Virus record (IMG/VR): IMGVR_UViG_3300002835_000025
Reading direction: 5' to 3' (one strand)
From: a virus
Length of the DNA: 64,000 nucleotides
Position numbers and translations under genes: made by a program
The notes under the pieces: generated by a model
What the model was told of the DNA's origin: nothing
Databases searched by the model: none
Seen by the model: only the letters and a program-made list of their open reading frames with translations
Shown here: piece by piece, positions 40,208 to 49,376 of the stretch
Numbering within the stretch: position 1 is the first letter of the stretch
Layout of the letters: every line of letters starts with the position of its first letter

Positions 40208-40657
40208 TTAGCAAATCAATTAGTTCAATTCGATAAAGAACTCTTAAAATTCTTTGTAGGATTTGATACACATTCAGAAGCAATTAGAAAAGCCACTGAA
40301 AATCTTAAAAATCAGAAGTCTTATCCTCCGTATAATATTAAAACGGTTGGTGATAATTCTTACATAATTGAGATTGCTGTTGCTGGTTTTAGCCGTAATG
40401 ATATTGATGTGGAACTTTATAACAGAACACTGACTGTGACTGGTAAATCCGCGGAACCAGATGATAGTGTTTACTTGTATAAAGGATTGGCATCAAGAGC
40501 ATTTACTAGAACTTTTACAATTGCTGAAAATGTGGTAGTATCTGAAATTAAGTTAAACGATGGTATGTTGCGTATCTTTCTTGACCATATCATCCCAGAG
40601 GAACTTCGTCCTCGTAAACTTGAAATCAATACTTCCAATAATTTGTTGTTAGGTTAA
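40205..40657 (+). CDS. hsp20: Small heat-shock protein (Hsp20/IbpA-like)
   Basis: YPPYNI, IEIAVAGF, YKGLASRAFTRTF and DGML. Confidence 0.93.
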   Translation: MLANQLVQFDKELLKFFVGFDTHSEAIRKATENLKNQKSYPPYNIKTVGDNSYIIEIAVAGFSRNDIDVELYNRTLTVTGKSAEPDDSVYLYKGLASRAFTRTFTIAENVVVSEIKLNDGMLRIFLDHIIPEELRPRKLEINTSNNLLLG

Positions 40658-40665
40658 ATTTTATA

Positions 40666-40692
40666 GGGGGAATAGTTATCCCCCTTCTTTTT
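40666..40692 (+). terminator. Intrinsic terminator
   Basis: GGGGGA-ATAGTTA-TCCCCC with T-rich tail. Confidence 0.8.
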
Positions 40693-40707
40693 CTTTATGG
40701 ATATATT

Positions 40708-41013
40708 ATGACACAAACAATACTCGCATTTCGTTTATTATCAGGCGATGAAGTTATTTCTATCATTGCTTCAGAAACTGATACAACTTACGAACTAGAA
40801 AACCCCGCTCAAATTGCAACTCAAATGACAGAATCTGGCAAGATTGGTCTTATGATTGCCGCTTTCCAACCTTATGCAGAATCAAATATCACTCTTAATA
40901 AACATGCTATTGCTTCTATTTGTATTCCTGCCCAAGGTCTTGCTGATGAATATAAATCAAAGTTTGAAGAGTCTCTAATCATCACTCCTCCTAATCAAAA
41001 AATTATCGTTTAG
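40708..41013 (+). CDS. Conserved T4-like hypothetical protein (Sm-like)
   Basis: RLLSGDEVI...L.NP motif; usual position before gp43. Confidence 0.6.
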   Translation: MTQTILAFRLLSGDEVISIIASETDTTYELENPAQIATQMTESGKIGLMIAAFQPYAESNITLNKHAIASICIPAQGLADEYKSKFEESLIITPPNQKIIV

Positions 41014-41027
41014 ATTGGAGAAATAGA

Positions 41028-41588
41028 ATGCTAGTATTGGATATTGAAACTCTTGATATTGAATCAACTGCCGTAGTATTATCAGCATCAATGGTATACT
41101 TTGACGAAAATGATACTTGGTCAAGTTTATTGAAAAAGGCAGTATTTGTAAAATTTGATGCAAAAGAACAAGTTCAAAAATATAAAAGAACTATATCTAA
41201 AGACACTCTGTCATGGTGGAATACTCAATCTGATGCAGCAAGAGAAGTATCATTTAAACCAAAGCCTGATGATCTTACTGTAGAACAAGGAATTTCTTTA
41301 TTAAGAGAATACTTAAGTAATGATACTAATCCTACTAAGATTATTTGGGTAAGAGGAAGTCTTGATCAAATGGTAATTGATAGTTTATGCCGATCTGCAA
41401 AATTAGAACCATTAGCAAGATATAACCATTACAGAGACATTAGGACTGGAATTGATATACTATCAGAATCTTCTGTAAACGGATACTGCAAAGTCAATTG
41501 CGAAGACTTTAACATTGACTGGGTAGATAAACATAATCCAATACACGACATTGCTTACGACGCATTGCAACTGCTTCACCCAAACTAA
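41028..41588 (+). CDS. dexA: DEDDh 3'-5' exonuclease (DexA-like)
   Basis: LDIETL, TLSWW..Q, W.RGS.D, RDIRT and HNPIHD.AYD. Confidence 0.8.
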   Translation: MLVLDIETLDIESTAVVLSASMVYFDENDTWSSLLKKAVFVKFDAKEQVQKYKRTISKDTLSWWNTQSDAAREVSFKPKPDDLTVEQGISLLREYLSNDTNPTKIIWVRGSLDQMVIDSLCRSAKLEPLARYNHYRDIRTGIDILSESSVNGYCKVNCEDFNIDWVDKHNPIHDIAYDALQLLHPN

Positions 41589-41589
41589 T

Positions 41590-41628
41590 ATGTACACAGA
41601 GGGCTATTAATGATATAATAGCCCTTTT
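41590..41628 (+). promoter_or_regulatory. Early promoter overlapped by an inverted repeat (terminator or operator) before gp43
   Basis: ATGTAC-N18-TATAAT; AGGGCTATTA/TAATAGCCCT stem followed by a T run. Confidence 0.6.
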
Positions 41629-41645
41629 TATATCATGAGGAAAAA

Positions 41646-42632
41646 ATGATGATTAACGAATTTTATACAAATGCAATCCAATATGGTAATAAAATACTTG
41701 TCAGATCTATTAGAGATGGATTGCCACAAAAGCAGAAAATCGATTTTTACCCTACCTTATATACCACATCAGGAAAATCTTCAGAATCTTCTTCATTCAA
41801 GTCTTTACATGGAGTAGAATTATACGAAATAAAACCGGGTACCATAAATGATTGCAAAGATTTCATAAAAACTTACGAAAATGCGATGCCTGTGTATGGA
41901 CAAACAAACTATGCATATCAATATATTGAAGAAAATTACAAAACCGATATAAAGTTTGATTCTGACTTATTAAAAATCATTGCTATCGATATAGAAACTG
42001 CAAATGAAGAATCTGGTTTTCCTCATCCAAAATACGCTAATGAAGAAATTCTACTAATTACTGTCAGAGATCTTAAAACTAAATCTACAAAAATATTTGG
42101 ATCTAGACCTTATGAAGGAAAACATAAAGCAGATTTTGTCCTTTGTAAAGACGAAAATCAATTACTTCAGCAATTTGTGACTCATTGGCAACAAAGAATC
42201 CCTGACATTATTACGGGTTGGAATATTGACAACTTTGATATTCCGTACATTATTAATAGACTACTAAGAACTATAGGAGAAGATTATGTTAAAAAACTTT
42301 CTCCATGGAATATAGTCAATGAACGTTCTAAAAAGGTTAATAACGTAGAACAACAGACTTATGAAATACTCGGTGTGTCATCTTTAGACTATATTGAACT
42401 CTATAAGAAATATTCTAAAAAAAACCAGGAGTCATACAGACTAGACCATATAGCATTTGTAGAACTTGGTGAAAGAAAACTGGATCATAGCCAATGGAAT
42501 ACTTTCAAGGAATTTTACTCTGGTGAATATGACACTCATAAAATTAGGCCAGAGTATGAAAATTCGGATACAAAGTCTTATAGAAGAACACAGATAAAAT
42601 TAGAGTTAATTAGACGCGGACTAACAGTTTAA
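41646..42632 (+). CDS. gp43: DNA polymerase gp43, N-terminal fragment (N domain, Exo I and II)
   Basis: [19 protein letters not shown] and [15 protein letters not shown]; stops before Exo III. Confidence 0.92.
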
Positions 42633-43470
42633 ATTGTTTACAGTTTGTGCCATGCCATCTATTATAATTAAGAGGATCAAAACTGCAGTTGCAATATTCA
42701 CAAAGTATTGATTCTTTCTTTTTCATAGGTGGCAATTCTATTTCAGATTTGAATACATTTAAAGAACTGTCAAATATTGTCCAAGTTTTAGAAACTAGTC
42801 TTGTATTTCCTAGTGTTAAATTATATATTTTCTGTGGGCTTATTTTTGTTAATTGATGAAATTCTGATATAGTCATATCAAATACATCTTTAGTTATTAC
42901 ATTTTTAAATTTGAAAATGTCTTTTTTAAACCAAGGTTTACTTTGCTTTGCAATTTTACCAAAATTAATATTTTTACATTCAATAGAACATAATTTCTGG
43001 CTAATATTATGTGTAATTATTTCTTTATTACATACGGAACAATTTATAGTGATATACTTTCTGTTCGATAGCGCTTTCAATGATCTATTCTGTTTAATTA
43101 TTTCTTTAGTACACGATCTAGAACAACAATTACTGCATCCGCTAAATTCTTTATAACAATATTTGCAAATTTTCATTGGCTTAAGTTTTTTAACTCCAGT
43201 ATTTCCATCTCCGCCATCAGTCTTATTTAGGAGTATACCTGTCCCAATGTCTTTTCGCCCATGCCATCTTATCATTCTTCTTTCTATTGCTAATGCTCCA
43301 ACTTCAGATAAATTCGTTTCTAGGAATATTATCTTTGTTCTATCCTTTGGCACAGATATTCCTTTATGAATATCATAGGCTCTAGTATTCTTACCTTTTC
43401 CAATGTAATATGGTGTTCCGTCTGACTTTCTAATATATGCATACACGTAATATATAAGATCGCTGGTCAT
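42610..43470 (-). mobile_element. Free-standing GIY-YIG-like homing endonuclease inserted antisense within gp43
   Basis: [15 protein letters not shown]...RA, conserved E, N.TDGGDG, multiple CxxC fingers and C-terminal CxxC..RWH..NC. Confidence 0.85.
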
Positions 43471-43561
43471 GATAGTTCCTTGAATTGTCTTAAGAATGAT
43501 TAGTGCTACTGGAGCCTAGGAACTCGCGAGTAGCTTTTTTAGTTTGTACAATCTATTTATA
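43471..43561 (-). promoter_or_regulatory. Late promoter and structured leader of the endonuclease
   Basis: TATAAATA on - (43554-61); GCTACT..AGTAGC stem; AAGGA RBS. Confidence 0.65.
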
Positions 43562-43573
43562 ATATCAATAGAT

Positions 43574-43603
43574 GTTTACTTTTTGTTGTTATTGTGATAT
43601 TAT
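43574..43603 (+). promoter_or_regulatory. Early promoter for the gp43 C-terminal fragment
   Basis: GTTTAC-N18-TATTAT with TG extension; AGGAG RBS follows. Confidence 0.7.
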
Positions 43604-43627
43604 ATACATTTATTATAGGAGAACATT

Positions 43628-45307
43628 ATGTTTAGTGATATATCAGATAAAGATTTATTAGATGAATATTATAAATTAGATAAAGAAATAAAGCAAGAAT
43701 CATGGACTACATATACTGATTACAATTATCATGACGTATTGCTTATTGATAAATTGGATGAGCAATTAAAGTTTATCGAGTTACAACTCACAATGGCATA
43801 TACTGCCAAGATTAATTATCAAGAAGCATTTAGTCCGGTTAGACTATGGGACTCTACAATCTATCACTATCTTATTAATAAGAACATTATTATTCCTAAC
43901 ATGGACAGAAATGTTAAAGGAGAATTAATGGGTGCCTATGTAAAGACTCCTATTACTGGCATTCATAAATGGATCGCGTCATTCGATTTGGCATCATTAT
44001 ATCCTCATCTAATAATGCAATACAATATCAGCCCAGAAACATTAACAACTACGAAATTGTCATTCACTATTGATAATTTATTAGACAAAATTGAACTTCC
44101 AAAAGTTGATTATGCAATTACTGCTAATGGTTGGTGCTATTCTAAAGATAAGCGCGGATTCCTACCAGAGTTGATGGACACTATGTATGCAAATCGTTCT
44201 ATGCATAAGAAACAAATGTTAAAGCATGAACAGCAATACGAGAGTGATAAGAACAATAAGGAACTATCAAAAGAAATTTCAAGACTTAATAACTTGCAAC
44301 TAGCTCTAAAGGAAACACTAAACAGTGCATACGGAGCTATTGGAATGCCATACTTCCGATATTATGATTTGAGAATGGCAGAATCCATAACATCATCTGG
44401 ACAGTTCTCGATAAAATGGATAGCAAACAGAATTAACAAATATTTGAATTCAGCTTTGAAAACAAATAACACCGATTATATTATTGCTTCGGATACCGAT
44501 TCTGTGTACGTGTCATTGGAAACTTTGGTCGAAACGACTCAAGGTGAAAAATCGACAGAAGATAAAATCAAATTCATGGATTCATTCTGCGGCAAAGTCT
44601 TAACTCCGTTAATAGAAAAATCATATATCGAGTTAGCAGAGTACATGAATGCCTATGAACAAAAGATGCAAATGAAACGAGAAGTACTTGCTGATAAAGG
44701 TTTGTGGACGGCTAAGAAAAGATATGCATTAAGAGTTCATAACTCTGAAGGTGTTCAGTATGATAAACCAAAAATGAAAATTATGGGCATTGAGATTGTA
44801 AAGTCATCGACTCCAACTGCCATAAGAGAAAAATTGAAGTCAACTATTGATATTATTTTTAATGACACTAATTTGGACCTCATAAGATTCATTGAAGACA
44901 CTAGACAGGAATTTAAAACATTAGCAGTAGAAGATATTGCTATTCCAAGTACAGTTAATGGAATGATAAAATTTTCTAATGACAAAACTATTTATTCTAA
45001 AGGCTGTCCGATTTATGTCAGAGGAGGTTTATTATACAATAAAGTTGTTAAAGATATGAAACTTGATCAGAAGTATCCTTTAATAGGCGCAGGAGACAAA
45101 TTAAAATATGTTTATTTGAAACTCCCAAATACTATTAAAGAAGATGTTATTGGATTCCCTACTGAATTACCAATGGAATTCGGATTACATAAGTATATTG
45201 ACTACAACACTCAGTTTGAAAAAGTGTTCTTGAATCCATTAGAAAAGATTGTCGATGCTATTGGTTGGAATTTAAAAGAGCAATCGACTTTAGATGCATT
45301 CTTCTAA
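43628..45307 (+). CDS. gp43: DNA polymerase gp43, C-terminal fragment (Exo III plus polymerase)
   Basis: YNYHD (Exo III), SFDLASLYP, K..LNSAYG, ASDTDS, KKRY and clamp-binding TLDAFF. Confidence 0.95.
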   Translation: MFSDISDKDLLDEYYKLDKEIKQESWTTYTDYNYHDVLLIDKLDEQLKFIELQLTMAYTAKINYQEAFSPVRLWDSTIYHYLINKNIIIPNMDRNVKGELMGAYVKTPITGIHKWIASFDLASLYPHLIMQYNISPETLTTTKLSFTIDNLLDKIELPKVDYAITANGWCYSKDKRGFLPELMDTMYANRSMHKKQMLKHEQQYESDKNNKELSKEISRLNNLQLALKETLNSAYGAIGMPYFRYYDLRMAESITSSGQFSIKWIANRINKYLNSALKTNNTDYIIASDTDSVYVSLETLVETTQGEKSTEDKIKFMDSFCGKVLTPLIEKSYIELAEYMNAYEQKMQMKREVLADKGLWTAKKRYALRVHNSEGVQYDKPKMKIMGIEIVKSSTPTAIREKLKSTIDIIFNDTNLDLIRFIEDTRQEFKTLAVEDIAIPSTVNGMIKFSNDKTIYSKGCPIYVRGGLLYNKVVKDMKLDQKYPLIGAGDKLKYVYLKLPNTIKEDVIGFPTELPMEFGLHKYIDYNTQFEKVFLNPLEKIVDAIGWNLKEQSTLDAFF

Positions 45308-45308
45308 T

Positions 45309-45338
45309 GTGTACATTATAATCGATATAGTGTATAAT
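45309..45338 (+). promoter_or_regulatory. Early promoter
   Basis: GTGTAC-N18-TATAAT. Confidence 0.7.
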
Positions 45339-45367
45339 ATTATTTTATTATTTAAAAAGGAAATATT

Positions 45368-46231
45368 ATGTCAGAATTATTAGCAAAAATTAAAAAGACT
45401 TGTACCATTAAAGATTCTTCTGTATTGAGTGCATCAAAATATTTTAATAAAAAGGATATGATTCAAACTCAGATTCCTGCATTAAATGTTGCATTATCTG
45501 GAGAATTGGATGGAGGTTTTGTTCCTGGTCTGACATTATGGTGTGGTCCAAGTAAACATTTCAAATCGATGTTTTCATTAATCATGGCTAAAGCTTACAT
45601 GGACAAATATCCTGAAGCAATTATGATTTTTTATGATTGCGAATTTGGAACTCCAACTGCGTATTTTAGTTCTCTTAATATTGATACAAATAGAATTCTT
45701 CATGTTCCTGTAATGAATATGGAAGAATTCAAATTTGATGTCATTAAACAATTAGAAGGACTTGATAGAGGAGATAGGGTAATTTTTATCATTGACTCTC
45801 TAGGTAATATGTCTTCCAAAAAAGAAATGGAAGATGCTATTGATGGAAAATCAGTACAAGATATGTCTAGAGCTAAACAAATGAAATCAATTTTTAGAAT
45901 GATTACGCCATATCTTAATAGATTAGACATTCCAATGGTAGCAGTTAACCACATCTATATGTGTGGAACAGAAGAAATGGAAGTTATTTCGGATAATGGT
46001 GCAATTAGTCTAAAAAATATCACGCCGGGAATGTTAGTGGAAACTACCAATGGACTTCAACCCGTCACTAATGTATTTAAGTATGAGGACGCGTATGTGT
46101 CTGATATTGAAATGGAAGACGGCACAATACTATCATTTACACAAGGACATAGATTCATGGTAAATGGAGAATGGGTCTTTGTAGAGGATCTTCAAGAAGG
46201 AATGGAACTTGATATAAAACCCATCTCGTAA
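45368..46231 (+). CDS. uvsX: UvsX recombinase N-extein fused to split-intein N half
   Basis: GPSKHFKS, IIDSLGN, DMSRAK and VNHIYM, followed by intein C1 at 45962. Confidence 0.92.
   Translation: MSELLAKIKKTCTIKDSSVLSASKYFNKKDMIQTQIPALNVALSGELDGGFVPGLTLWCGPSKHFKSMFSLIMAKAYMDKYPEAIMIFYDCEFGTPTAYFSSLNIDTNRILHVPVMNMEEFKFDVIKQLEGLDRGDRVIFIIDSLGNMSSKKEMEDAIDGKSVQDMSRAKQMKSIFRMITPYLNRLDIPMVAVNHIYMCGTEEMEVISDNGAISLKNITPGMLVETTNGLQPVTNVFKYEDAYVSDIEMEDGTILSFTQGHRFMVNGEWVFVEDLQEGMELDIKPIS
45962..46228 (+). mobile_element. Split intein N-fragment (89 aa)
   Basis: Block A CGTEEMEV; block B TQGHRF; W..VEDL.EG. Confidence 0.88.
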
Positions 46232-46272
46232 TTGCAATAAATAATTCATATATACATTTTAAAGGGTTTTAT

Positions 46273-47073
46273 ATGAATTATTTGAAACATTACGAATTAT
46301 TAATTACTAGAGCAAAATCTAGAAGTAAAATTTTAGAGTATATTGAGAAACATCATATAGTTCCAAAGTGTTTAGGTGGAAATAATGATATTGACAATAT
46401 TGCTGAACTAACACCAGAGGAACATTATTTTGCCCATCAACTACTAGCAAAAATATATCCAGATAATTGCGGGTTAATTAGTGCATGTAAATTGATGGGA
46501 GGAAGTATTTCGGGAAAAAGAAGTAATAATAAAATCTATGGGTGGATAAGAAGAAAATCTAATATATTGATGGGACAGTCAATTAGGAAACTTCATATTG
46601 ATAAAAGAGATATGAAGTCTATATCATTAGGATTTGAAAATTATATTGATATGTCTAAGTCTATATGGGATTTATTCATAACCCATAAATTACATTATAC
46701 TTCTATAGAAGAAAAATTTGGGGTTAGTCGGCATTTTATAAAAAGATCTTTAGAAGTATATGCTAAAGATAATGACTTATTAGATGAGTTAGCTCAAGGT
46801 TATTATGATCTTAAGTCAAGCAGTCAAAAACTAGGCAGATCTAAATTTACTGAAGATCAAGAAAGCAATAGAATAACAGCATTAAAAAATATTGACTATG
46901 CCGCTAGATCATTAAAAACCGGTTCTAGAAAAGGATCATTAAATCCAACATTTGGTAAAACTTGGTCTCATATTAAAATGATGTGCCCATATTGTAATAA
47001 AGAAGTCGGCGGAAAGCGTTGGCATTTTGATAACTGCAGGAGTAAAAATGAAAATCAAATCAATAAAATTTAA
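46273..47073 (+). mobile_element. Free-standing HNH homing endonuclease between the split-intein halves
   Basis: EKHHIVPKCLGG.N...N...LT.EEH..AH.LL; NPTFGK; CPYC..RWH..NC. Confidence 0.88.
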
Positions 47074-47152
47074 TACACGTAAGGCAGATGTTTACGACAT
47101 TGAAACTCCTACACACGATTATATATTAAAAAACGGAATAATTTCTCATAAT
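47048..47152 (+). mobile_element. Split intein C-fragment (35 aa)
   Basis: MKIKSIK...VYDIET..HDY...NGIISHN followed by Thr+1. Confidence 0.9.
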
Positions 47153-47656
47153 ACACAGGAGCTTTACAGCAAACCTGTAGTTTCTGGTGGAACTGGTGTT
47201 TACTTATCTGCTGATAATATTTTTATTCTTGGAAGACAACAAGAAAAAGAAGGAACAGAAGTCATTGGTTATAACTTTATCATCAATGTAGAAAAATCAA
47301 GATATGTAAGAGAAAAATCAAAAATTCCAATTAGTGTTCTATTTGAAGGTGGTGTTTCTAAATGGTCAGGATTATTAGAAATGGCATTAGAATCTGGTCA
47401 TGTCATTAAGCCAAATAATGGTTGGTATTCTAGAGTAGATAAAATTACTGGTGAGCTTGAAGATAAACGATATAGATTAAAAGATACTATCAATAAAGAA
47501 TTCTGGCTTCCTATATTAGCAAAAAAGGATTTCCAACAATGGATAAAAGAATCTTATAAATTGACAGAATCAGAAATGCTATCTGATTCAGTAATTGAAT
47601 CAGAATTATCAAAGGTTGAATTAGAGGATTTGGAAAAAATTTCTGAATTAGTTTAA
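47048..47656 (+). CDS. uvsX: Split-intein C half fused to UvsX C-extein
   Basis: AGGAG RBS with ATG 47048; extein TQELYSKPVVSGGTG..SAD and NVEKSRYVREKS. Confidence 0.9.
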   Translation: MKIKSIKFNTRKADVYDIETPTHDYILKNGIISHNTQELYSKPVVSGGTGVYLSADNIFILGRQQEKEGTEVIGYNFIINVEKSRYVREKSKIPISVLFEGGVSKWSGLLEMALESGHVIKPNNGWYSRVDKITGELEDKRYRLKDTINKEFWLPILAKKDFQQWIKESYKLTESEMLSDSVIESELSKVELEDLEKISELV

Positions 47657-47679
47657 CTGTGTTGAGAGTGTATGCCAGT

Positions 47680-47708
47680 GTGTACACTCTCTATTTTTAT
47701 GATATAAT
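47680..47708 (+). promoter_or_regulatory. Early promoter
   Basis: GTGTAC-N17-TATAAT; -35 lies in one arm of the inverted repeat GAGAGTGTA/TACACTCTC. Confidence 0.65.
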
Positions 47709-47725
47709 AACATTTTGAGAATATT

Positions 47726-48016
47726 ATGACTACTAAATTCGAAACATATAACTACTTTGATGCTTCTGGAACAGAAGTTGTTGCATTAGAAATCCTAGAA
47801 GATAAATTCAAAGGCTCTATCTTTTCATTTGGAAAAGTAGAATTTCCAGACCCTAACGAACCAATCCTTAATTTTGAATATACTCTTCATCAAGGATATA
47901 TCTCTGATGATAATAAGGAAGATTTCAAAAATTGCTTGGGTGATATATTAGTACAAATTTTAGAAGAATCTCTTAAAGACAAAACTACTGTTTTTAAAGG
48001 TGGCATTGATGAGTAA
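47726..48016 (+). CDS. Conserved protein in the gp40 position
   Basis: Between uvsX and gp41; FKG...FGKV.F...L.FEY...GDILV. Confidence 0.6.
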   Translation: MTTKFETYNYFDASGTEVVALEILEDKFKGSIFSFGKVEFPDPNEPILNFEYTLHQGYISDDNKEDFKNCLGDILVQILEESLKDKTTVFKGGIDE

Positions 48017-49376
48017 GATAGAAACTACTATTTTATCTAATTTAATTCATAACGCTGAATATAGTCAAAAAGTTCTTCCATTTATTAAAAGAGAATATTT
48101 TAAAGAAAGACCTGAAATTATTGTAACTGAAGAAATTCTGTCTTTTGTTGATCAGTTCAATAAGATGCCAACTCAGGAAATCCTGTCAATTCAAGCATCA
48201 AACCGTCAGGATGTCAATGACCAAACTTTAGTAGAAGTTGAATACTTAATTAAGTCATTAGAGAATCAACCAACAAATGACGAATGGCTTATTGAAGAAA
48301 CCGAGAAATTTTGCAAAAACAGGGCAGTATTCAATGCAATCATTTCTTCAATGCAAATCATTGATGGCAAAGATAAAAAATATACTCAGGAAGCAATTCC
48401 AACCTTATTATCAGAAGCTCTTAGTATTTGTTTTGATACTAATGTTGGCCATGATTTCTTCGAAGATTCTGACTCTAGATTTGAATATTATAGAAGAGTA
48501 GAAGAAAAGATTCCGTTTGATATTGATATACTAAACAAAATTACTAATGGTGGTCTAGCAAGAAAATCTCTCAATATATTACTTGCGGGAACTGGTGTTG
48601 GGAAATCTTTGGTGATGTGCCATTTTGCTGCTGCAGCTCTAATGCAAAGTAAGAATGTGTTATACATTACTATGGAAATGGCAGAAGAAAGAATTGCTGA
48701 ACGTATTGATGCTAATCTTCTAAACCTAGGAATGTCAGAATTAAAGACTATAGAGCAGAATATTTTCTCTTCTCGTGTTAATAAGCTTAAACAGAAGTCT
48801 CATGGCACATTAATCATTAAAGAATATCCGACATCTACTGCTCATACCGGCCATTTTAGAGCATTGATTGAAGAATTAAAATCAAAGAAAAGTTTCTCTC
48901 CAGATATAATCTTTGTTGATTACTTAAACATTTGTTCTTCACAACGAATGAAATACGGAGCAGGCGTAAACAGTTATTCTTATGTGAAAGCAATTGCTGA
49001 AGAATTACGAGGATTAGCAGTAGAGTATAATGTTCCACTTGTTAGTGCTACTCAATCTAATAGAGAAGGTATCAATAGTTCAGATTTAGATTTGACAAAT
49101 ACTTCTGAAAGTATTGGTCTTCCTCAGACATGCGATTTGATGCTAGCATTAATTTCTACAGAAGAATTAACAAATCTTGGTCAAATAATGATTAAGCAAT
49201 TAAAGAATCGGTATAATGATCCAAGTTATTACAGCAAATTCATGGTAGGAATAGACAGAAATAAAATGAGGATATTTGATGTTGAATCAGAAGCTCAAAC
49301 TGGAATTTCTAATCACACTCCATTTGTAGCAAGATCTAACAAACAAGAAAAAGATACCTCAGGATTTGTATTCTAA
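48009..49376 (+). CDS. gp41: Replicative helicase gp41
   Basis: AGTGVGKS, ITMEMAEERIAERIDAN, IKEYPT, VDYLNI, SATQ and KQLKNRY. Confidence 0.96.
   Translation: MSKIETTILSNLIHNAEYSQKVLPFIKREYFKERPEIIVTEEILSFVDQFNKMPTQEILSIQASNRQDVNDQTLVEVEYLIKSLENQPTNDEWLIEETEKFCKNRAVFNAIISSMQIIDGKDKKYTQEAIPTLLSEALSICFDTNVGHDFFEDSDSRFEYYRRVEEKIPFDIDILNKITNGGLARKSLNILLAGTGVGKSLVMCHFAAAALMQSKNVLYITMEMAEERIAERIDANLLNLGMSELKTIEQNIFSSRVNKLKQKSHGTLIIKEYPTSTAHTGHFRALIEELKSKKSFSPDIIFVDYLNICSSQRMKYGAGVNSYSYVKAIAEELRGLAVEYNVPLVSATQSNREGINSSDLDLTNTSESIGLPQTCDLMLALISTEELTNLGQIMIKQLKNRYNDPSYYSKFMVGIDRNKMRIFDVESEAQTGISNHTPFVARSNKQEKDTSGFVF

Follow-up and report, generated by a model that had tools for sequence, protein, structure and literature searches.

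A T4-like gp43 DNA polymerase gene divided between Exo II and Exo III by a presence/absence cassette

The divided gp43 gene and its cassette

The DNA analyzed here, referred to as the window, is the 64,000-nucleotide stretch of the IMG/VR virus record IMGVR_UViG_3300002835_000025, from a freshwater T4-like phage, and our subject is its gene for the family B DNA polymerase gp43. Positions 41646 to 45307 hold three open reading frames (ORFs): gp43 lies on the plus strand in two pieces, with an antisense ORF between them. The ORF list bears out this orientation and the coordinates of both gp43 ORFs, which had been given in a first-pass annotation made from the sequence alone. The features of the two pieces are as follows.

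41646..42632, plus strand: gp43 fragment 1, 328 residues; N-terminal domain and exonuclease domain through Exo II, followed by a 36-residue tail
41988..41996, plus strand: Exo I motif D115-I-E117; D115, I116, and E117 are invariant in alignment A1 and the RB69 Exo I region is aligned with it
42222..42239, plus strand: Exo II motif N193...F197-D198; in A1, N193 and D198 do not vary and F197 hardly does, and the RB69 Exo II region aligns
43575..43603, plus strand: sigma-70-like match TTTACT-17-TATTAT upstream of fragment 2, a candidate only
43617..43621, plus strand: Shine-Dalgarno (SD) sequence AGGAG, 6 nucleotides (nt) 5' of the fragment 2 ATG
43628..45307, plus strand: gp43 fragment 2, 559 residues; Exo III, the remainder of the N-terminal domain, palm, fingers, and thumb (Pfam DNA_pol_B)
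43721..43735, plus strand: Exo III motif Y32-N-Y-H-D36 in fragment 2; Y32, N33, and D36 are invariant and the motif aligns with RB69 YNIID

Fragment 1 matches Pfam DNA_pol_B_exo1 with an expectation value (E) of 1e-26. In an alignment with the solved RB69 gp43, its residues 4-282 correspond to RB69 residues 2-306, and fragment 2 from its residue 20 onward corresponds to RB69 residues 311-897, that is, to the C-terminus. Joined, the pieces give full-length RB69/T4 gp43 homology, with Exo I, II, and III and the polymerase motifs all present. The RB69 alignments therefore agree with the earlier assignment of Exo I and Exo II to one polypeptide and of Exo III to the other. The Tyr and Asp of Exo III we take to be the catalytic Y323 and D327 of RB69 gp43. 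Because the break separates Exo II from Exo III, the residues of the proofreading site lie on two polypeptides, and the site would be composite.

An intact counterpart was found on the metagenome-assembled contig L038, which is ∼99% identical to the window over 9.6 kb and encodes an uninterrupted gp43 of 827 residues (P0121). By blastn, the flanks are 99.0% and 99.6% identical and the breakpoints lie at 42521/43703; measured against this intact allele, the breakpoints of the first-pass annotation were correct within one or two residues. The sequence between them comprises the following features.

42522..43702, no strand assigned: mobile cassette, 1181 base pairs (bp), which stands in for 6 bp (AATGAC, Asn-Asp) of the intact allele
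42522..42629, plus strand: tail at the C-terminus of fragment 1, residues G293-V328, in which an acidic linker that has an invariant Pro precedes a basic amphipathic helix, net +4
42610..43470, minus strand: antisense free-standing homing endonuclease gene, 286 residues, GIY-YIG-like, whose 3' end overlaps the tail codons by 23 nt
43554..43561, minus strand: TATAAATA, a T4 late-promoter consensus read from the sequence ∼85 nt upstream of the endonuclease ATG
43628..43702, plus strand: N-terminal head of fragment 2, M1-S25; an acidic amphipathic helix, SDKDLLDEYYKLDKEIKQ, net -4

The cassette thus runs from the tail codons and stop through the antisense endonuclease gene and a spacer with the SD sequence to the ATG and head codons. 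At the junctions, the intact allele reads FKEFYS-ND-WTTYTDYNYHD, whereas the window reads FKEFYS-G plus 35 residues and a stop, then Met plus 22 residues and ES-WTTY. Fragment 1 is ∼98% identical to P0121 (291/297) up to FKEFYS, and fragment 2 is 100% identical to it from W26 on. Divergence of the flanks between the window and L038 is not elevated close to the junctions. The insert is a mobile cassette, present in one allele and absent from the other, and its limits are exact.

The stretch across the junctions occurs, whole or in part, in 20 freshwater or lake metagenome runs from 18 studies, 2016 to 2025, and four of these runs (2016 and 2024) were examined at contig level. In two of the four, a 32-kb contig spans the whole stretch with zero differences, at 30x and 20x word depth; these two runs may be the window's own source. 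The others, X8 and X10, come from other samples and other studies, and their contigs bridge both junctions (X8) or the right one (X10) at 100% identity. With the junctions bridged in these independent lake metagenomes, the split arrangement is not an assembly artifact, a possibility that had been raised earlier. No contig in the four runs skips 42522-43702, but rare variants are lost when reads are assembled into contigs, and this result is no evidence that the intact allele is absent.

The antisense ORF gave tblastn matches to Seg-like and intron-associated endonucleases, with 38-55% identity for the Seg-like ones, and the motif YVYAY...YYIGKG is visible in it. A solved GIY-YIG protein was matched weakly (E 0.029) and phrog_15526 at E 4e-20, the PHROG families matched being unannotated; Pfam returned no match even at E ≤ 10. 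The late-type TATAAATA on the minus strand probably drives this gene. Homologs stand at the same position in the relatives L034, L037, and L039 described below, and between cassettes the endonuclease catalytic domain is 89, 85, and 69% identical versus 66, 65, and 47% for the polymerase body. No second copy of the endonuclease or its leader was found within the window. The stretch upstream of the endonuclease gene, 43462-43512, also occurs with three mismatches and two gaps on a different contig, of 4384 bp, in three of the four lake metagenomes.

A comparison of L038 with the window reveals a second clean insertion, of 1191 bp (45962-47152), in uvsX. In the window, a split intein fractures uvsX (45368-47656), and a free-standing gene for an HNH endonuclease (46273-47073) separates the two halves. 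An intein-N-like segment closes the N-piece, and the C-piece opens with an intein-C-like segment that ends SHN before TQELYSK; both give weak Pfam Intein_splicing matches below the gathering score, and uvsX of L038 is uninterrupted. Directly upstream of gp43, at 41028-41588, lies a gene with an Rv2179c-like 3'-5' exoribonuclease domain, which is syntenic in L003, L034, L038, L039, and the P0100 contig.

Conservation of the split site, the tail, and the head

The split is not confined to the window. A search with the tail profile against 1.8 billion representatives returned 16 proteins, and all searches pooled gave at least 18 distinct tail-bearing clusters of three subtypes. Many N-fragments, 322-331 residues long, came from a search for proteins of comparable length; they end at the same place with the same tail, and their bodies are just 41-66% identical to that of the window. 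The same split site with conserved tail and head occurs in L034, L037, L039, L040, L041, L042, the P0100 contig, and others. What lies between the halves varies: the endonuclease gene is full length in the window (286 residues), L039, L040, and L042, decayed in three other loci, and absent from L041.

L039: antisense endonuclease, 280 residues
L040: 322 residues, with a different N-terminal domain and a shared C-terminal domain
L042: 263 residues, NUMOD3 type
L034: decayed endonuclease, 88 + 129 residues
L037: 210 residues, decayed
P0100 contig: 77 residues, decayed
L041: no endonuclease, 54-bp spacer

Tail, stop, ATG, and head are kept in all seven loci compared as DNA (the window, L034, L037, and L039-L042), and a GGAG- or AGGA-type SD sequence precedes the head ATG in six of them. 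The gap between fragments is 714-1093 nt in six of the seven and 54 nt in L041. The P0100 contig, compared at the level of protein and layout, has the same gene layout, and the P0100 protein carries the tail. Five split genes have close intact sisters (P0001/P0121, P0003/P0127, P0002/P0125, P0004/P0146, and P0005/P0174). In a quick tree of the N-terminal 290 residues of the polymerase, in which P0058 is a contig-truncated intact protein beside P0062, well-supported branches force at least seven changes of split/intact state. This alternation fits homing into cassette-free alleles, recombinational loss, or both, and does not fit a single ancient fission.

One of these loci carries an additional break, and another may do so. 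L037 (5001-9229) encodes a three-piece gp43 in the order 328-residue piece, antisense GIY-YIG gene, 220-residue piece, sense HNH/NUMOD3-type gene, and 365-residue piece. Its second break is at the fingers tip, with a basic tail (...EEKTRRKLV) and an acidic head (...SLSDEELIQ). In L040 (3146-6052), the second gp43 piece (427 residues) has a C-terminal part that bears no relation to gp43, and the next ORF but one weakly matches an intein; an additional insertion, of an intein or an endonuclease, may interrupt L040 gp43 downstream of its pre-Exo III split.

The broken gene could be non-functional, leaving the phage defective or dependent on the polymerase of a co-infecting relative, and the window halves are too near the intact allele (∼99-100%) for a direct selection test of this explanation. 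It is nevertheless very improbable. In other lineages, halves at 41-66% identity keep their catalytic residues and open frames, split forms outlast loss of the endonuclease, and lake metagenomes from 2016 to 2024 yielded the split allele itself in assemblies with a word depth of 20-30x.

The terminal peptides are conserved as protein. The tail consensus ends ...Y-x-R-T-Q-x-K-x-E-L-x-R-R-G-L, and the head consensus is M-(F/Y)-x-x-x-S-D-x-x-L-L-x-x-Y-x-x-L-D-x-x-I-K-Q-x-S-W. In the seven loci, L10, Y14, and D18 of the head are invariant, and a hydrophobic stripe of L10, Y14, L17, and I21 is conserved. The charge of the tail helix is +2 to +6 and that of the head -3 to -7 in all seven, including L042, whose sequence is divergent; the basic tail helix and acidic head helix of the first-pass annotation are accordingly real and conserved by both alignment and charge count. 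Between cassettes, the proportion of synonymous differences (pS) in tail plus head is 0.7-0.86, near saturation, versus 0.11-0.37 for nonsynonymous differences (pN; 0.11 for the window and L034, 0.34-0.37 for distant pairs). For the tail, pS is 0.73-0.86 versus a pN of 0.13-0.36, and pS also exceeds pN for the head. Tail and head are under protein-level purifying selection. The C-terminus of the minus-strand endonuclease, which overlaps the last seven tail codons, is itself unconserved, and so the constraint on the tail lies on the plus strand. An origin of the two peptides by duplication of flanking gp43 was considered because the beginning of the tail looks by eye like Exo III and the head like the stretch that precedes the break, but hhalign against the native region gave E of ∼0.5-0.6 and the idea is unsupported.

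These data bear on whether the halves are joined at the RNA level. If the insert were a group I intron with an antisense endonuclease gene, splicing would restore a single gp43 mRNA. Phage DNA-metabolism genes often carry group I introns, Petrov et al. (2010) reportedly describe one in 43B of phage 25, and the endonuclease ORF leaves ∼310 nt of the insert uncovered. However, Rfam cmscan found no group I intron at E ≤ 1 in window positions 40500-48500 or in L041, which lacks the endonuclease; tail and head have diverged as coding sequence does, pS being much higher than pN; and the stop, SD sequence, and ATG are conserved in six to seven loci. In addition, the same sequence is translated as part of a protein in the homologs P0245 and P0246, discussed below. 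An intron is therefore very unlikely.

Joining of the fragments by a split intein, or by ribosomal bypass as in T4 gene 60, is scarcely credible. A true split intein does lie 700 bp downstream in uvsX, and the 54-nt gap of L041 is near the 50-nt gap of gene 60. Against an intein, tail and head amount to ∼60 residues, too small for a Hint fold; the junctions are S|G and S|W, without a Cys/Ser/Thr nucleophile or a terminal His-Asn; and neither fragment has a Pfam intein match, whereas the neighboring uvsX pieces do. Against bypass, the gaps in six of the seven loci are far longer than in L041, there is no matching take-off/landing codon pair, an SD sequence precedes the ATG, and the conserved Gly is separated from the stop by one to four variable codons. 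The first-pass view of two polypeptides with neither intein nor intron is thus upheld by Pfam, Rfam, and the coding substitution pattern.

Two distant gp43 homologs, P0245 and P0246, carry the tail, a turn of 4-6 residues, and the head in one open frame just before Exo III, and the string YRRTQIK is exactly common to the window and one of the two. AlphaFold2 modeled P0246 (60-row alignment; predicted local distance difference test score, pLDDT, of 92-97) with a short native helix, FKDFYT, an ordered linker, and then a hairpin. The predicted hairpin consists of helix 476-493, which is the tail helix, turn 494-497, and a single long helix, 498-537, in which the head runs into the Exo III helix. 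When fragment 2 of the window was modeled alone with AlphaFold2, residues 7-62 formed one helix, with the head continuous with Exo III, at the moderate confidence expected because the partner is absent. A complex prediction of the ends only, with 7-row alignments of a 49-residue tail part (the tail and 13 native residues) and a 45-residue head part (the head and the Exo III helix), gave an interface score, ipSAE, of 0.10 versus a mark of 0.32, a result that speaks neither for nor against pairing.

Among the intact close homologs, 0 of 109 have extra residues at the site and the spacing is an invariant 31-32 residues, so the hairpin comes and goes with the cassette. The idea that the tails are halves of a pre-existing insertion consequently fails for these 109 proteins, and an uninterrupted hairpin is found in the two distant polymerases only. 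The peptide zipper of the first-pass annotation gains indirect support from the two homologs in which tail and head make up the helices of one unbroken hairpin; physical association itself is a prediction. P0246 itself (L044, 186-2405) is a gp43 N-piece of 739 residues that stops at the fingers tip and has large additional insertions close to Exo I. Its gene is followed by clamp and clamp-loader genes with no C-terminal half, so the polymerase half must be encoded elsewhere.

Natural precedents for divided phage enzymes

In Aeromonas phage Aeh1, mobE splits nrdA, and the NrdA pieces have unique basic C-terminal and acidic N-terminal tails that are "derived from the mobile element" and essential for activity; Crona et al. 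(2011) predicted such tails in other fragmented genes (PMC3045599). The nrdA-a/mobE/nrdA-b "genes in pieces" arrangement (Friedrich 2007; Crona et al. 2011) and the window are alike in that a free-standing homing endonuclease splits an essential DNA-metabolism gene within its active site, with no intron or intein, and the active-site residues lie on two polypeptides. Like an Aeh1-type locus, the window has a gene that is contiguous in a close relative, split by an endonuclease gene, free of any splicing element found, and equipped with charged tails absent from intact homologs. The two differ in the host protein, NrdA versus gp43, and in the endonuclease, sense HNH versus antisense GIY-YIG-like. 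The Aeh1 tails had no database matches and were known from one phage, whereas the window tails belong to a conserved family with endonuclease-less and uninterrupted forms. Conversely, the function of the Aeh1 tails was shown biochemically, whereas that of the window tails is suggested by sequence and models.

Split gp43 enzymes are also known (Petrov et al. 2006, 2010). The gp43A and gp43B pieces of Aeromonas phages 44RR2.8t and 25 co-purify and are active, and phage 25 has a seg-like GIY-YIG gene between the halves (PMC2988022). The 44RR polymerase is the same T4-like enzyme in two cistrons with a short spacer, as in L041, and its ends likewise are a basic RG-containing tail and an acidic head. 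Its break, however, lies at the fingers tip (498 + 391 residues in the GenBank record) and leaves the exonuclease domain whole. The window break, at residue 293 (∼RB69 residues 306-315), is ∼200 residues earlier, just before Exo III, and the split point thus differs from the known fingers-region split, as had been proposed.

A common natural two-piece gp43 is that of marine and freshwater cyanophages split at the fingers tip, e.g., Synechococcus phage ACG-2014f (491 + 325 residues). Here too the N-piece ends ...E(M/L)(K/R)(K/R)RG(L/I), an acidic helix of the SDEEL type opens the piece that follows, and L037 carries both splits; the site and the intervening genes are different. The fingers-tip cyanophage tails presumably align with the native long RB69 fingers tip, with no added hairpin, as judged by eye. 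Among the proteins collected, fingers-tip N-pieces of ∼487 residues (P0006-P0118; L001, 2031-5047; L043, 1997-4718), together with ACG-2014f and 44RR, end ...E(M/L)(K/R)(K/R)RG(L/I/V), and the next pieces begin SDEEL/EEEL. A third class of N-pieces, of ∼423 residues, ends ...LNNRIAELEKML. The resemblance between the fingers-tip and pre-Exo III end motifs may reflect shared origin or shared helix-capping rules.

Two further systems are related in part. T4 gene 39/mobA/gene 60 is an endonuclease-associated split replication enzyme with tail-like extensions, according to Crona et al. (PMC3045599), but gene 60 has a 50-nt translational bypass and bypass signals were not found at the window gp43. 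In the split-intein "fractured genes" of Dassa et al. (2009, PMC2677866), a free-standing endonuclease separates the halves of a phage replication or recombination gene, and the window uvsX is such a case; their halves are ligated by protein trans-splicing, whereas the window gp43 is without an intein. In the literature searched, we found no published description of a gp43 split between Exo II and Exo III. The principle has already been published; what goes beyond precedent is the composite exonuclease site, the widespread conserved tail/head family, and the presence/absence polymorphism in several lineages.

A probable two-subunit polymerase rebuilt at the cut

Our current hypothesis, to which we assign a probability of roughly 0.75, is that gp43 is a two-subunit enzyme rebuilt through its native interface plus a bisected hairpin, and that the cassette is spread by its endonuclease. 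The cassette would have entered in frame in a surface loop of the exonuclease domain before the Exo III helix, turning one gene into two cistrons. Its 36 codons and stop would end fragment 1 in a linker plus basic amphipathic helix; it would also bring the antisense GIY-YIG-like endonuclease gene with its own upstream region, and an SD sequence, ATG, and 25 codons for an acidic helix that extends the Exo III helix N-terminally. The polypeptides would be made separately and an RB69-like polymerase would reassemble via the extensive native contacts of its N-terminal and exonuclease domains. As the two arms of a bisected helix-turn-helix hairpin, the tail and head helices would lie antiparallel against each other and serve as an extra clasp where the protein is cut, and reassembly would set the Exo III Tyr and Asp of fragment 2 beside Exo I and II of fragment 1. 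The endonuclease would presumably cut cassette-free alleles in mixed infections, and repair would copy the entire cassette, helices included, such that the insertion would be of little cost to the phage. Heterodimer formation, helix pairing, endonuclease activity, and homing we infer from the sequence; taken together with the models, it suggests that the conserved helices probably hold the polymerase halves together.

Several observations count against parts of this hypothesis. The charge pattern alone is no proof of pairing, because an acidic helix N-terminus and a basic, Gly-containing C-terminus follow general helix-capping rules. The Aeh1 tails are dispensable for heterodimer formation though essential for activity, and so "docking" may misdescribe the tails. 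The assignment of the endonuclease to the GIY-YIG family is weak, given the missing Pfam match and the poor E value of the best solved structure. Finally, the first-pass annotation had given fragment 2 its own promoter and ribosome-binding site. The AGGAG stands, whereas the promoter is not established, since the sigma-70-like consensus is matched at chance level (8 found versus 8.9 expected in shuffled sequence).

Some of the same observations would suit tails that are mere passengers, with the native interface alone reassembling the halves and the tail and head either tolerated leftovers or serving in folding, solubility, or protection from proteolysis. The dispensability of the Aeh1 tails for heterodimer formation (PMC3045599) and the helix-capping rules agree with this explanation, as do the large native contact surface that fragment 1 shares with the Exo III/N-domain part of fragment 2 in the RB69 mapping and the presence of the same RRG(L/I) and SDxEL end motifs at fingers-tip splits. 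We nevertheless consider it rather improbable, as tail and head are under strong purifying selection and are retained after endonuclease loss in L041, the head has a conserved hydrophobic stripe, and both helices form one confidently modeled hairpin in an uninterrupted homolog.

A more speculative reading, possible but in our view doubtful, is that the helix-turn-helix is part of the mobile element, not of the polymerase, and serves it as a portable split-and-dock adaptor. A cassette carrying its own complementary helices could break an essential gene at a surface loop and cost its host almost nothing. The like end motifs at the pre-Exo III and fingers-tip sites (...ELxRRGL-stop and Met...SDxELLxxY) would then point to a common modular origin, and the uninterrupted hairpins, as in P0245 and P0246, would be scars left where the endonuclease was lost and the pieces then fused. 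If this reading were true, such adaptors would be a third general solution beside introns and inteins.

The two-subunit hypothesis has consequences for both use and annotation of these genes. A small natural heterodimerizing helix pair, if the helices pair as predicted, is a possible part for split-protein engineering. T4-like phages of fresh and marine waters often encode gp43 in two or three genes, which should not be annotated as pseudogenes or taken for assembly errors. The intact, live-endonuclease, decayed, endonuclease-less, and uninterrupted-hairpin forms provide a natural series from which the function and origin of the tails can be approached. Here the divided enzyme is a replicative polymerase, in which the catalytic residues of the 3'-5' exonuclease are shared out over two polypeptides. 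The family would thus be a second, and far better sampled, natural case of the Aeh1 principle, in which a selfish endonuclease brings a peptide "antidote" to its own gene break.

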